From: Pseudomonadota bacterium
Lineage (GTDB): Bacteria > Pseudomonadota > Gammaproteobacteria > Burkholderiales > Rhodocyclaceae
Reading direction: 5' to 3'
Length of the DNA: 31,592 nt
Assembly (NCBI GenBank): GCA_041158545.1
Contig: JBEBBF010000234.1
Coordinates: forward strand, 1-31,592
The stretch's first letter is position 1, and every line of letters begins with the position of its first letter. The notes under the pieces are model-generated. The model was not told the origin of the DNA and ran no database searches. It saw nothing but the letters and a program-made list of their open reading frames with translations. The position numbers were made by a program, and so were the translations under genes. This document shows, piece after piece, positions 1-3,874 of this stretch.

Positions 1-1536
1 CGCGAGTTGCCAGTCGCCGATCCGGGTGCTGCCCTGCAGTTCCCAGCCGTCGATTTCCGCCTTGCCGACATTGCTTGGGGTCCAGAAGAAAGGATTGGCG
101 GTCGGTGCCCACTGGATCAGATCCTTGATCTCGTTCTTGAACCAGGTCAGCTTCAGCAGGTTGCGGCCATCGTCGTAGCGGGCGGCCAGTTCGGTGTTTT
201 TCGAGGTTTCCGGCTTCAGCGCGGCGTTGCCCTGGCCAAAGCCATCGTTCGGGTAGTACAGATCATTGAAGGTGGGCGCCTTGAACGCGGTGCCGATACT
301 GCCGGAAAGGCGCCACAGCGGCGTCAGCCGGAAGCCGTAGCCGGCGGTGTAGGTGGTTTTTTCACCGAACTGGGAGTTGTTGTCGTGGCGGGTGTTGAGC
401 TGCCAGGTGTGGGCATCGATTTGCCCGTTCCAGCCCAGCGAGGCGGAATTGATGGTGCGGGCGCTGGTGGCGTAACTCTGGGTGCCGCCGACCCGCTGCC
501 CCAGGTGTTCCAGCAAGACCAGGGCGTTGCCCAGCGGCAGCTTCACGTCGTTCTGCCAGGCGACCTGGTCCTGGTTGGTGGTGAATTTCTGCGGCGGCTG
601 GCCGAGCGTGGTCGGCAGGTTCTGCTCGGAGATGTTCTGGCTCTGGCCGAATTGCAGCTGGCTGGTCCAGCTGTCGCTGAAACGGCTGCGGGCGAAAACG
701 CTGGAGCGGGTGATCTTGTCCTGGTTCTTGTAGTCGAGGTTGGCGCTGGAGTAGGTGAAGAAATTCGGGTCGTACAGCGCGTTGTCGATCCGGGTCCGGC
801 TGTGGCTTTCCAGGTGGGAGGCGCCGATTTCGCTGTCGGGGTTGAGCTGGTAGCGCAGGTCCAGGCTGCCGTTGCGGTTATTGGTGCCGTCCTTGTCGCT
901 GTTGTAGAACGGGTTGCCGGTGCTGGTCAGGCTGTTGATGCCGTCGCTGCCGCTGAAACCGACGCGGGCCGATACACGCAGGCGATCCAGGGTCTGGGCG
1001 GTGGACAGGGCGGCTTCGTAGCTGCCCCGGTTGCCGTAGCCCAGGCTGACGGTGCTGCCCGGCTGTTCGCGGCGGGTGATGATGTTGATGACGCCGCCGA
1101 TGGCGTCGGAGCCGTAGATCGACGAGGCCGGGCCGCGGACGATTTCGATCCGGCTGATCTGGTTCAGCGGGATCATTTCCAGCGGCGAGGTGCCCAGGGT
1201 GGCGGAGCCGAAACGGACGCCGTCGATCAGCATCAGCGTGTGGCTGGATTCCGTGCCGCGGATGTAAAGGCTCTCGGCGGCGCCGCGGGAGCCGGTCCGG
1301 GAAAATTCGATCCCGGCCACCCGGCCGAGCAGTTCGCCCAGGGTGCTGGCCGAGGAACGTTCGATGTGTTCCTGCTCCAGCACGGTGACGTCGGCAATGG
1401 TTTCGGAGATGCGCTGGGCCTGGCGGGTGGCGGTGACCACCACCGGGTCAAGTTCCTTGTTCTGGGCAAGAACGGGGTTGGCGAAAAGGGGGGCAAGGGC
1501 GGCGGCCAGCAAGGCCGGACGGAAATGCGGAGTCAT
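1..1536 (-). CDS. btuB: TonB-dependent cobalamin receptor BtuB; 3' end runs off the window
   Basis: Minus-strand reading from ATG at 1536 gives MTPHFRPALLAAALAPLFANPVLAQNKELDPVVVTATRQAQR..., with a signal peptide, TonB-box-like DPVVVTATR and a plug segment (GPASSIYGSDAIGGVINIIT). SD-like AGGGAG upstream, directly behind a cobalamin riboswitch. Absent from the ORF track because there is no stop in the window. Confidence 0.9.
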   Translation of the reverse strand, partial: MTPHFRPALLAAALAPLFANPVLAQNKELDPVVVTATRQAQRISETIADVTVLEQEHIERSSASTLGELLGRVAGIEFSRTGSRGAAESLYIRGTESSHTLMLIDGVRFGSATLGTSPLEMIPLNQISRIEIVRGPASSIYGSDAIGGVINIITRREQPGSTVSLGYGNRGSYEAALSTAQTLDRLRVSARVGFSGSDGINSLTSTGNPFYNSDKDGTNNRNGSLDLRYQLNPDSEIGASHLESHSRTRIDNALYDPNFFTYSSANLDYKNQDKITRSSVFARSRFSDSWTSQLQFGQSQNISEQNLPTTLGQPPQKFTTNQDQVAWQNDVKLPLGNALVLLEHLGQRVGGTQSYATSARTINSASLGWNGQIDAHTWQLNTRHDNNSQFGEKTTYTAGYGFRLTPLWRLSGSIGTAFKAPTFNDLYYPNDGFGQGNAALKPETSKNTELAARYDDGRNLLKLTWFKNEIKDLIQWAPTANPFFWTPSNVGKAEIDGWELQGSTRIGDWQLA

Positions 1537-1669
1537 GTTTTCTCCCTGCGCCGGCAAGCGTCCCCGCAAGCCGGCAATCGTTGAAGGCGATGTTGTCGCA
1601 GGGGGGAGGTGTGAGGGACCGGTTGCGCAGTCCGCTGCTGCCGTTACCCCGCGGCACATCAGTGGCTCA

Positions 1670-1850
1670 GTGAAGGCCGGTATCCGGGCTCGCAAGTCTT
1701 GATGCGCCGCCTTCCCAGGTCCTGACCCAGTGGCGTTGTGGCGTATCCGCACTTGCTTACCGTTGCGGGGGCAGCAGCGGCTTGGTTCCTTCGAACGCAC
1801 CGCTTTCCCGTTTAACTGCGCCATCGGAGGATGGACGCAGCACCATTCAC
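1670..1850 (-). promoter_or_regulatory. Cobalamin (AdoCbl-class) riboswitch aptamer
   Basis: Minus strand has GGTGC...AAACGGGAAAGCGGTG...AAGCCGCTGCTGCCCCCGCAACGGTAAG...GCCACTGG...CTGGGAAGGC...GAGCCCGGATACCGGCC, the conserved B12-element segments, upstream of btuB. Confidence 0.95.
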
Positions 1851-1880
1851 TTTTTTCGCTCTCGTTTGAAAGCGGCCGGA

Positions 1881-1999: not shown

Positions 2000-2200
2000 A
2001 TGGATATGGAATTGAACACCCTGGAAGCCCGAATCGATCAGGCCGTTAACCTGATCGCCGCCTTGCGTGCCGAGAATTCAGCCCTGCGGGCGCAGCTGGC
2101 CGCCGGGGAATCGGAAAGTCGGGAACTGCGTCAGAAGATCAATGTTGCCCGTGAGCGCCTGGAAGGCCTGCTCGAACGCCTGCCTGAGGATCAAGCCTGA
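2000..2200 (+). CDS. zapB: Short coiled-coil cell division protein, ZapB/TIGR02449-like
   Basis: 66-aa all-heptad protein (LEARIDQAVNLIAALRAENSALRAQL); its stop overlaps the zapA start (TGATG); typical position before zapA. Confidence 0.75.
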   Translation: MDMELNTLEARIDQAVNLIAALRAENSALRAQLAAGESESRELRQKINVARERLEGLLERLPEDQA

Positions 2201-2505
2201 TGAACGGGATCGCCGGCTACGTTGATATCAAGCTCATGGGGCGGGAATTCCGCATTGCCTGCCCGCCCGAGCAAAAGGAAGAACTGTTCCAGGCCGTGGC
2301 CCTGCTGGATGGCAAGATGCAGGAGTTGCTGAACAAAACCCGGACCGCCCAGGTGGACAAAGTGGCGGTCATGGCCGCGCTGAATATCGCCCACGACCTG
2401 ATCACGCTGCAGAAGCAACCGAGTTTTGACAGCAGCGGCGCGAAGCGTAGAATCGAAGACATGGGAGCGCGACTGGCTGTCGCGCTGGATGCCCCGGCCA
2501 ACTGA
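2200..2505 (+). CDS. zapA: Cell division protein ZapA
   Basis: 101 aa; DIKLMGREFRIACPPEQKEEL...VAVMAALNIAHDL is the ZapA pattern; located just upstream of 6S RNA. Confidence 0.9.
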   Translation: MNGIAGYVDIKLMGREFRIACPPEQKEELFQAVALLDGKMQELLNKTRTAQVDKVAVMAALNIAHDLITLQKQPSFDSSGAKRRIEDMGARLAVALDAPAN

Positions 2506-2534: not shown

Positions 2535-2715
2535 GCGTTCCCTGCGGTGTTCGCCAAGGTCATATATTCCTTGAACCAATGCTGATTGGCATCGGTCGCC
2601 GACCAAAGTTTCTGCTGTTGTGCATGCTCCTTGTGGGCGTACCTGATGCGGAACGGAAAGCGGCCACTCTGAACTCCGGTTCAGGATGCCGGCCTAGCGG
2701 CACTCGCGGGGGCCT
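2535..2715 (+). ncRNA. ssrS: 6S RNA
   Basis: CCCTGCGGTGTTCGCC (about 2540-2555) can pair with GGCCTAGCGGCACTCGCGGGGG (2691-2712). Has CCTTGAACC and TGAAC-TCCG-GTTCA elements. About 180 nt, immediately after zapA. Ends approximate. Confidence 0.88.
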
Positions 2716-2720
2716 TACAA

Positions 2721-2770: not shown

Positions 2771-3802
2771 TTAGCGGCTGCTGGCCAGATCCACCTGTTG
2801 CACGCTGTGGGCTTCGCCGTTTTCAGCGAGCCAGAGCCCGGTCTGGCTGACTTCACCGCGGAGCCGGCCCTGCTCCTGCAGCTGGAAGGGGCTGGCAATG
2901 GCCGCGACGGAGATTGCGCCGACGCCGGCTTCGCCCAGGCTCTGCAGCCGGCCGCCGTGCGGGTCGGGGAACCACAGCGCGAGGCGGGAGAAGTCCCGGT
3001 CGCCGCTGTCGATCCAGCCATTGTGGTCGCTGTCCCAGGCGGCCAGGTCGGCAAAGCCGTTGCCGGAGCGGGTACCGAACAGTTCGCCGCCGTTGCTGAT
3101 CCGGTTGTCGCCATTCCGGTCAAAGGCGAGGAAGGCGTGGCCGGCGGCCAGCAGCGGGATGTTTTCCAGCTGCCCGTTGCCATCCAGATCGAAGCTCATG
3201 CTCTGGCCGGCGAGCAGCCGGGCCGGGCCGTTGAAGTTGATCACCAGCGGGTCGCGCAGGTCGGCGCCACTGATGCCGGCGGCCAGATCTTCGCTGCGGC
3301 TCATCCGGGTCATCGTCAGTTCCAGGTTGAACACCAGATCCTTGCCGTCGGCGGTATGGACATGGCCGCGAGCCGTGACTTCGGTGTTTTCCCATTCCTG
3401 GCGGCTGTCCTGCAGGATCGCCAGATGGCTGTCGTTGCCGGAATCGGTTTGCCGCTGCAGCAGACCGCTGATCTTGTCGCCCAGCGAGCAGGTGTCGGCG
3501 CAGCCGTGGGCTTGCCGGGTCAAGCTGCGCTGCAGTGCGCTCAGCAGTTCGCGGAACAGGGCGTCGAGTTTTTGCCGGGTATTGCCGTCATCCTGTCCGG
3601 CAAGGTTTGCCTGCCAGTGGGCGTGACTCAGGTTTTTCAGGGAGGCCTCGGCCGCAACCGGGCTCATCGGCGTCGGCGTCGGTGTGGCCGTGTGTTGCTG
3701 CAACAGGCGGGCAAAACGGTCGGAATCGGCCAGGGTGGTGCTGCGGCTTTGTTCGAGTTTGTGGTCGCTGTGCAGCGCGAGTTCGGAGAAGTCGATGCGC
3801 AT
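2771..3802 (-). CDS. Hypothetical Ca-binding protein (343 aa), C-terminal half resembling an FrpC-type self-processing module
   Basis: Likely start ATG 3802 (MRIDFSELAL...) after SD-like AAGGGG. Contains RDPLVINFNG, FDLDGNG, FDRNGDNRISNGGELFG and WDSDHNGWIDSGD. The longer 623-aa ORF in the track is an artefactual upstream extension. Confidence 0.8.
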   Translation of the reverse strand: MRIDFSELALHSDHKLEQSRSTTLADSDRFARLLQQHTATPTPTPMSPVAAEASLKNLSHAHWQANLAGQDDGNTRQKLDALFRELLSALQRSLTRQAHGCADTCSLGDKISGLLQRQTDSGNDSHLAILQDSRQEWENTEVTARGHVHTADGKDLVFNLELTMTRMSRSEDLAAGISGADLRDPLVINFNGPARLLAGQSMSFDLDGNGQLENIPLLAAGHAFLAFDRNGDNRISNGGELFGTRSGNGFADLAAWDSDHNGWIDSGDRDFSRLALWFPDPHGGRLQSLGEAGVGAISVAAIASPFQLQEQGRLRGEVSQTGLWLAENGEAHSVQQVDLASSR

Positions 3803-3874
3803 GATGTTGCCCCTTGCTGGGTCGGTGTACCCGAATCCAGCAAGCTCCGTACCACGGGCGATGCCCGGCTTTCT

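Follow-up and report, generated by a model that had tools for sequence, protein, structure and literature searches.

A compact, RTX-free family of FrpC-type self-processing module proteins with flagellar-like promoters, seen from a Rhodocyclaceae locus

Description

The gene described here lies on contig JBEBBF010000234.1 of GenBank assembly GCA_041158545.1 (Pseudomonadota bacterium, Rhodocyclaceae), a metagenome-assembled genome that is 62.6% complete in 472 contigs; the whole stretch of DNA analyzed, positions 1 to 31,592 of that contig (31,592 nt), is referred to as the window. The gene occupies positions 2771-3802 of the minus strand, translates without interruption into 343 residues followed by a stop codon (2771-2773), and encodes a member of the short, sigma-54-type subfamily (subfamily A) of a stand-alone protein family built on the FrpC-type self-processing module (SPM, Pfam PF26745). 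The module covers residues 185-343 (2774-3250, minus strand), and the predicted scissile bond, Asp184-Pro185 (3248-3253, minus strand), is in register with Asp414-Pro415 of FrpC. A first-pass annotation, made without database searches, had proposed a module of this kind, and both the Asp-Pro codons that it placed at 3253-3248 and the motif series that it quoted are present in the translation. A longer frame with a GTG start reaches up to 4642; the 280 residues that it would add are antisense to a plus-strand gene for a TauE-like membrane protein. For that reason, and because a Shine-Dalgarno-like AAGGGG (3810-3815, minus strand) stands 7 nt from the ATG at 3802, this ATG is taken as the start codon.

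The domain assignment itself is already known, since precomputed Pfam 38 annotation places PF26745 ("SPM") on the window protein and on every listed relative, and the relatives carry automatic names such as "SPM domain-containing protein" and "VCBS repeat-containing protein". What is new is the compact RTX-free architecture, the split into early-class and late-class paralogues, and a proposed export through the flagellum; a literature search found no paper on the stand-alone family, on a link between SPM and flagella, or on a link between a VCBS protein and the FliA regulon. Local Pfam and NCBIfam scans of the window protein gave sub-threshold EF-hand matches at most, the Pfam copy scanned being one that lacks the PF26745 model. 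A single-sequence search of the PDB with the window protein returned the FrpC SPM (6SJW) at E 0.008, and a family profile built from 120 relatives returned it at E 9.4e-15, with the profile proline falling on chain residue 1, which is Pro415 of FrpC. The AlphaFold2 model of the window protein has a mean predicted local distance difference test score (pLDDT) of 83.9 and a predicted TM score of 0.72; Foldseek matched it only to 6SJX and 6SJW (E 1e-9, TM 0.70). Exhaustive VIA-align comparison with 48,161 PDB chains superposed residues 185-343 of the model on residues 1-172 of 6SJW (Z 18.6, root-mean-square deviation 2.1 A over 146 residues), with the best of all other chains at Z 4.2. The earlier claim of an FrpC-like module is thus borne out by profile and fold alike, and it is virtually certain that residues 185-343 are a true homologue of the FrpC module.

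A word-indexed search returned over 1,500 relatives with lengths of 320-390 residues. When 1.84 billion cluster representatives (50% identity) were searched with a profile, 22,445 clusters had an SPM at E <=1e-3 and 2,700 at E <=1e-30, and the best 150 cluster matches all cover the profile from its first to its last position. Conservation was counted over 267 diverse family members that share only about 35-40% identity. Asp184 is kept in 266/267 and Pro185 in 267/267, which answers a check on the Asp-Pro dipeptide in homologues that the first-pass annotation had proposed, and the L-V-I-N-F-x-G that follows is nearly invariant. At the other end, the family N-terminus reads M-[KR]-I. The window protein has no GGxGxD nonapeptide and no HemolysinCabind match, and it ends where the module ends; a hydrophobic Sec-like stretch is present in the first 45 residues of none of the 267 members, and type I secretion genes are absent from the 31,592-nt window. 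A Tat signal is likewise lacking in the family. The absence of RTX repeats, of a clear Sec signal and of neighboring type I genes had been read correctly from the letters. The stand-alone, RTX-free and signal-less architecture proved to be fixed across the family, and the window protein is no isolated curiosity: the family is huge, and its SPM is already filed as PF26745.

The comparison set consisted of FrpC, whose SPM comprises residues 415-591, and of classical modules cut from giant open reading frames of the same order. FrpC, FrpA and ApxIVA (6SJW, 6SJX; PF26745) share with the stand-alone family the fold and an Asp-Pro at the same N-terminal module boundary. Two EF-hand-like loops lie in the same places as in FrpC: D228-E240 (3083-3121, minus strand) matches FrpC D462-E474 and has Asn233 where 256/267 members have Gly, and D257-D268 (2999-3034, minus strand) matches FrpC D499-D511 and keeps all liganding positions. 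Also conserved are a Trp past the second helix (Trp277, kept in the family) and, in the last strand, a residue that is either acidic or an amide. In FrpC, D478 and D579 are structural residues next to the scissile bond. The last strand, Q336-V-D338-L-A-S-S-R (2774-2797, minus strand), likely carries the equivalent of FrpC D579, which is the invariant D338 or Q336 depending on the alignment, and the window's copy runs two residues longer here.

Of the four calcium sites of FrpC (D419-G424 with D456, D462-E474, D499-D511 and D521-E532), two are kept in the window protein. Unlike FrpC, the stand-alone family has no RTX repeats, type I signal or FrpD-like partner, and the protein stops at the module end. 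Its first loop reads N-F-x-G where FrpC has D-L-D-G-D-G; a deletion of about 9 residues past ELFG removes D478, the position being T244 here and P, T or A in the family; the third EF loop (the fourth calcium site of FrpC, D521-E532) is 4-5 residues shorter; and the last hairpin contains a 5-residue insertion. The family further differs in its flagellar-like promoters and in a conserved beta hairpin ahead of the cut, packed on the module in the models. The Asn-substituted first loop (INFNG), which had cast doubt on activity, is present, but it does not mark decay of the window's copy, because Asn189 is the family norm (248/267). A family-specific acidic loop of the DxDxDG type, D205-L-D-G-N-G...E213 (3164-3190, minus strand; D205 in 267/267, G210 in 266/267), might compensate for the altered calcium sites. 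Most members (237/267, 89%) stop exactly three residues past an invariant Asp, with the ending DLxV-COOH (DL[ATSV][VAI]). This rule, which the window's copy breaks, suggests that the C-terminal carboxylate, being free, may contribute to the site which in FrpC is formed with the help of D478.

Classical SPMs in giant repeat proteins of the same order (loci L046-L060, 900-4,800 residues) often stand behind ALTTAQ-type repeats, and several of their host genomes lack FlhA. Ser-Pro or Thr-Pro is found at the cut position in 9/15 of these modules, whereas the stand-alone family is strictly Asp-Pro.

The half of the protein ahead of the module comprises a conserved N-terminal segment (residues 3-26; 3725-3796, minus strand; consensus MKIxxSxxxLxSxH), which the models show as a single very long beta strand lacking a Sec-type hydrophobic core, a linker (residues 35-127; 3422-3700, minus strand) that varies in length, is modelled with low confidence and contains a single conserved helix (about residues 72-96) with L-T-G at its end, and a long conserved beta hairpin (residues 128-173; 3284-3421, minus strand; ExExTxFxAxGxVxTADGxxIxFxLxLxMxRxY). 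Full-length and fragment models agree on three very long strands (3-26, 126-150 and 155-178; pLDDT 91-98), and in these models strand 3-26 and the hairpin form a three-stranded sheet. One face of the hairpin is conserved (ExExTxFxAxGxVxTADG / IxFxLxLxMxRxY). Residues 120-340 are matched at 2.7 A by the AlphaFold DB model of a relative of 230 residues, and as modelled the hairpin and the SPM form one rigid unit. Residues 1-184 have no Pfam, PDB-sequence or fold relative (modelled alone; Foldseek none below E 0.02, VIA-align best Z 4.6). The top Foldseek matches were long hairpins of pore-form MACPF and gasdermin proteins; a pore-forming role was considered and rejected, as the amphipathicity of the hairpin is unlike that of a membrane hairpin. 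A fixed internal lysine acceptor was rejected likewise, since the family has no conserved lysine and the window's copy is devoid of lysine in its SPM half.

Proteins of about 230-260 residues that lack the SPM share with the family the hairpin motif only (GxGxIxTxDGxxFEFExEVSY; L021 1842-2642, minus strand; L022 1728-2501, minus strand; L024 1698-2489, plus strand). Two of these three have a convincing sigma-28-like site about 40 nt ahead of the likely start, because of which the N-terminal module may itself be a flagellar-regulon protein. An SPM-less relative that lies 9 kb from flhA (genome G082) was not counted as linkage, as unrelated genes intervene. In an ESM Atlas language-model feature search, the SPM-less relatives came weakly near CiaI (score 0.86), a lead only.

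Promoters were sought upstream of the family genes by scanning for TAAAG-N13-16-GCCGATAA (sigma-28; at least 11/13 matches, 200 nt upstream of the gene) and for TGGCACG-N4-TTGCW (sigma-54; at least 10/12 matches, GG and GC fixed). The window's gene has a putative sigma-54-type promoter, TGGTACGGAGCTTGCT (3839-3854, minus strand), with its GG at 3853-3852 and its GC at 3841-3840, 52 nt upstream of the ATG; the transcript is predicted to start near 3828. The sigma-28 motif was found 15 times in the first 38 family genes, nearly always with a spacer of 14 nt and at a distance of 26-133 nt from the start codon, where its frequency over 743 kb of flanking DNA predicts 0.4 matches and shuffled sequences had 0.19 on average. 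It was predicted beforehand for held-out genes from other orders and was found in 6/9 of them, and it was seen again in 80 further species, including Verrucomicrobia, Acidobacteriota and Lachnospiraceae; the Lachnospiraceae, Roseburia and Eubacterium members have sigma-D-like promoters. Over 111 distinct genes, 41 carry the sigma-28 motif at 11/13 or better (TAAAG-N14-GCCGATAA, 26-170 nt upstream) against about one expected (nominal binomial P about 2e-52), and another 30 reach 10/13. Flagellin genes of four carrier genomes, the window's own included, are preceded by this motif as well.

The sigma-54 motif stands at -49 to -70 in 18/111 genes, the window's among them, against 1.2 expected, and never occurs together with a sigma-28 site of at least 11/13 in the 111 genes. 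In a quick maximum-likelihood tree of 38 proteins, the eight sigma-54 genes form one clade (SH-aLRT 84), and the window's protein lies in it next to a copy from a complete genome of the same family (G130). In G130 the sigma-54 motif is found 46-139 nt upstream of fliE, fliK, flgK, flgE and flgB, which makes sigma-54 the sigma factor of the rod and hook class in this lineage. Together with a FleR/FlrC-like sigma-54 activator gene (L180 5425-6795, minus strand) beside fliE (L180 5048-5368, minus strand) in that genome, these sites indicate a flagellar hierarchy of the Pseudomonas/Vibrio style, not one under FlhDC. Genomes with two family copies typically have one of the sigma-28 type and one of the sigma-54 type. 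The median length is 323-333 residues in subfamily A and about 360 residues in subfamily B, the sigma-28 type. The window's genome contains a second, partial copy on another contig (C335; L008 3-353), whose 5' end is off the contig; the last 116 residues are present, are 50% identical and end in the canonical QQIDLSI, and a methyl-accepting chemotaxis protein gene is immediately downstream. This copy is probably the sigma-28-type paralogue.

In an order sample of 201 genomes, a full-length family member is present in 32, all of which (32/32) have FlhA, while FlhA is found in 138/201 genomes overall (nominal Fisher P 1.6e-6). The 63 FlhA-negative genomes contain no family member (0/63), though several hold classical SPMs in giant open reading frames. 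A class-wide sample added nine carriers from eight other GTDB families, again all with FlhA (9/9), for a total of 41/41. The family also occurs in Verrucomicrobia, Acidobacteriota, Lachnospiraceae, Roseburia and Eubacterium. All-against-all clustering of open reading frames in 24 loci (6-8 kb flanks) revealed no conserved neighbor gene; synteny is lineage-specific only, with ferrochelatase, RecN and GrpE in one clade and a periplasmic binding protein in another, and the family gene is thus solitary.

The two subfamilies also differ near the N-terminus. Two signals are required by the rod and hook subunits of Salmonella: small hydrophobic residues within positions 2-5 and, at a distance of at least about 19-30 residues from these, a gate-recognition motif, which in FlgD is 36-FLTLL-40 (Bryant et al. 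2022, PMC8983047). Resembling the FlgD motif, F30-A-R-L-L34 of the window protein (3701-3715, minus strand) is the mark of subfamily A, in which F-x-x-hydrophobic-hydrophobic lies at residues 28-37 and most often at exactly 30. Subfamily B has E-S-L-R-x-W-x-G there, and the two motifs never co-occur in 251 proteins. When F-x-x-hydrophobic-hydrophobic was scored at residues 25-46, a sigma-54 promoter was present in 17/18 genes with the motif as against 1/93 without it. The window's protein has I3 and F5, then FARLL 25 residues on, and so, as far as a short motif can indicate, would fit the published early-substrate pattern; I3 and F5 may be the candidates for a small hydrophobic N-terminal export signal. 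Subfamily A resembles the early flagellar substrates FlgD, FlgE, FlgG and FliK (PMC8983047) in its hydrophobic residues at 3-5, its F-x-x-hydrophobic-hydrophobic at 28-37 and its sigma-54 promoters, but it is neither rod, hook nor ruler by sequence or fold.

Discussion

The promoter motifs and the distribution of the family among genomes argue that it very probably belongs to the flagellar regulon, and it is rather likely, judging by its own upstream motif, that the window's copy is under sigma-54 and flagellar-class control. Subfamily B would be expressed from sigma-28 promoters like that of flagellin, and subfamily A from sigma-54 promoters of the kind that serve the rod and hook genes. The first-pass annotation had left the export route blank while noting, correctly, that no type I genes adjoin the gene; the promoters, the co-occurrence with FlhA, the gate-recognition-like motif and the presence of the family in Lachnospiraceae now point to the flagellar type III apparatus.

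In the mechanism proposed here, the gene would yield a leaderless two-part protein whose SPM half, by analogy with FrpC, would be unfolded at cytoplasmic calcium. The unfolded protein would leave through the flagellar type III apparatus, the window's copy along with the rod and hook class. Outside the cytoplasm it would meet calcium, the SPM would fold, and the Asp184-Pro185 bond would be broken through an aspartic anhydride. The anhydride, at the end of a long beta-sheet fragment, could then hydrolyze, cyclize or bond a neighboring amine. The flagellar channel passes unfolded chains only. The SPM would therefore be a natural passenger, as the FrpC module is disordered until it binds calcium, at levels far above those of the cytoplasm (Kuban et al. 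2020, PMC7078468).

The step from the window protein to calcium-triggered cleavage, argued from FrpC, is probable, whereas export by the flagellar apparatus, argued from promoters and motifs, is possible but falls a little short of an even case. On the reading as a whole, that of a leaderless flagellar-regulon protein exported by the flagellar type III apparatus and cutting itself on a calcium cue, our judgment is evenly balanced.

Non-flagellar proteins are known to use this channel, Yersinia YplA being one of them. CiaI, FedB and FspA of Campylobacter jejuni are documented cases as well (PMC5223770, PMC9856085). These resemble the family in being leaderless, co-expressed with flagellar genes from sigma-28 or sigma-54 promoters, and encoded outside flagellar clusters; they differ in having no self-cleaving module, no sequence or fold kinship to the family is confirmed, and export of the family is only predicted. 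A likeness of logic only exists with the calcium ratchet of RTX proteins, which is folding during type I secretion: a domain unfolded at low calcium suits a narrow channel and folds outside. The proposed channel is another one, and the stand-alone family has no RTX beta-roll.

Several points weigh against the flagellar proposal. The evidence base consists of DNA sequence and models, from which regulation in vivo, export, cleavage, cross-linking and target are inferred. The promoter evidence is a set of consensus motif matches, and sigma-54 also controls many non-flagellar genes; F-x-x-hydrophobic-hydrophobic is a short motif whose association with sigma-54 may trace to a single shared ancestor. 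The P values overstate the case because related genomes are not independent, and in none of the 24 neighborhoods does the family gene lie inside a flagellar cluster (0/24). The window's own copy is divergent, with a long branch (1.57), Asn233 for Gly at position 6 of the EF loop and two extra C-terminal residues. Since the first loop, the third EF loop and D478 are altered, its calcium dependence or cutting rate may differ from that of FrpC, and because the hairpin ahead of the cut packs tightly on the SPM in the models, release of the N-terminal fragment after cutting is not assured.

The family could belong to the flagellar regulon and yet act in the cytoplasm, either as a calcium-responsive motility or chemotaxis factor or as a sensor of envelope damage that cuts itself on calcium influx. 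The lack of a recognizable classical signal, the EF-hand-like loops, the chemoreceptor gene adjoining the second copy in the window's genome, and promoter classes shared with motor and chemotaxis genes would all suit such a role, but the calcium that FrpC-type modules require far exceeds cytoplasmic levels, the modules being otherwise disordered (PMC7078468), a permanently unfolded protein is unlikely to keep 2,700 clusters so strictly conserved, and the gate-recognition-like motif specific to one subfamily would have no role. We consider a cytoplasmic function unlikely.

The protein could instead be a type I substrate after all, its fixed C-terminus serving as a minimal signal for a TolC-dependent ABC exporter encoded elsewhere, with the SPM cutting outside as in FrpC. 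An unfolded, calcium-dependent domain suits type I export, and the DL[ATSV][VAI] end found in 237/267 members looks like the ends of type I-secreted proteases and lipases, where acidic and hydrophobic residues combine. The characterized SPM proteins FrpC, FrpA and ApxIVA are, moreover, all type I substrates (PMC7078468). The position of the last SPM strand next to the cleavage site accounts for that fixed end equally well, however, and the window's copy and much of its subfamily end otherwise than in DLxV. ABC, HlyD and TolC genes adjoin the gene neither in the window nor in the 24 loci of relatives. Single-membrane bacteria are not known to have TolC-type systems, while the flagellar type III apparatus is common to single- and double-membrane bacteria; the TolC-dependent route is disfavored because the family is also found in the single-membrane, flagellated Lachnospiraceae, Roseburia and Eubacterium. 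As it would also leave the sigma-28 and sigma-54 promoters and the co-occurrence with FlhA unexplained, type I export is quite improbable.

That the module no longer cuts and serves as a calcium-dependent folding or structural domain with a structural Asp-Pro, as the loss of the first acidic loop, third EF loop and D478 of FrpC and the Ser-Pro or Thr-Pro sites of many giant modules of the same order (showing that the chemistry at this site varies) might suggest, is very unlikely given an Asp-Pro kept in 266/267 and 267/267 members at about 35-40% identity, which is stronger than most structural positions, the retention of the two best EF loops and of the Trp pair partner W277, and the finding that FrpC D478N and D579N still cut (PMC7078468), so that the missing acidic residues are not catalytic.

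The flagellar proposal can be carried further. Flagellated bacteria of several phyla might export two calcium-armed clip-and-link proteins through the flagellum, the first produced alongside the rod and hook genes and the second alongside flagellin. Outside, in the presence of calcium, each would form an aspartic anhydride, by which its long beta-sheet N-terminal fragment would be bonded covalently to a component of the flagellum or envelope or to a surface. We regard this extension as improbable; if true, it would mean a hitherto unknown covalent step by which flagella are assembled, stabilized or attached, and a natural means, also new, of delivering the anhydride chemistry of NeissLock.

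The SPM is the basis of the NeissLock ligation technology, and no other natural module is known to us to form a protein anhydride in response to calcium; we know of studies of it only within type I-secreted RTX proteins of pathogens. Its compact RTX-free form is present in thousands of environmental and gut bacteria. If this form is wired into the flagellar hierarchy and channel, the SPM would gain a second biological context, the flagellar regulon would gain a widespread new member or pair of members, and protein engineering would gain small natural variants of the module (159 residues, trimmed loops). Standard flagellar genetics can test the division into early and late classes, in which only the sigma-54 subfamily carries a gate-recognition-like motif.

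Surroundings of the gene

No RNA-seq runs containing the locus were found, and the public runs that hold the sequence are freshwater metagenome DNA only. The downstream neighbors, which are unrelated to the SPM gene, are zapA with 6S RNA and, beyond them, a TonB-dependent receptor gene with a cobalamin riboswitch. The upstream, divergent neighbors are the TauE-like gene and genes for an enoyl-CoA hydratase, a sodium/solute symporter and a GGDEF-EAL protein. Elsewhere the window contains a Znu-type ABC system and an RND pump.

The cobalamin riboswitch (Rfam, 105 bits; 1658-1863, minus strand) overlaps the first codons of the longest frame of the TonB-dependent receptor (1-1824, minus strand), so that this BtuB-like gene must in fact start downstream of the riboswitch. 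The zapA gene (2200-2505, plus strand) is directly followed by 6S RNA (ssrS, 2536-2716, plus strand) in the classical arrangement, and the 3' end of the 6S RNA converges on the stop codon of the SPM gene with a gap of 55 nt. On the other side of the SPM gene, a perfect 5-bp GC inverted repeat (3855-3867; reading CGGGC-ATC-GCCCG along the gene's strand) directly adjoins the -24 element of the sigma-54 motif and is flagged as terminator-like on the plus strand.

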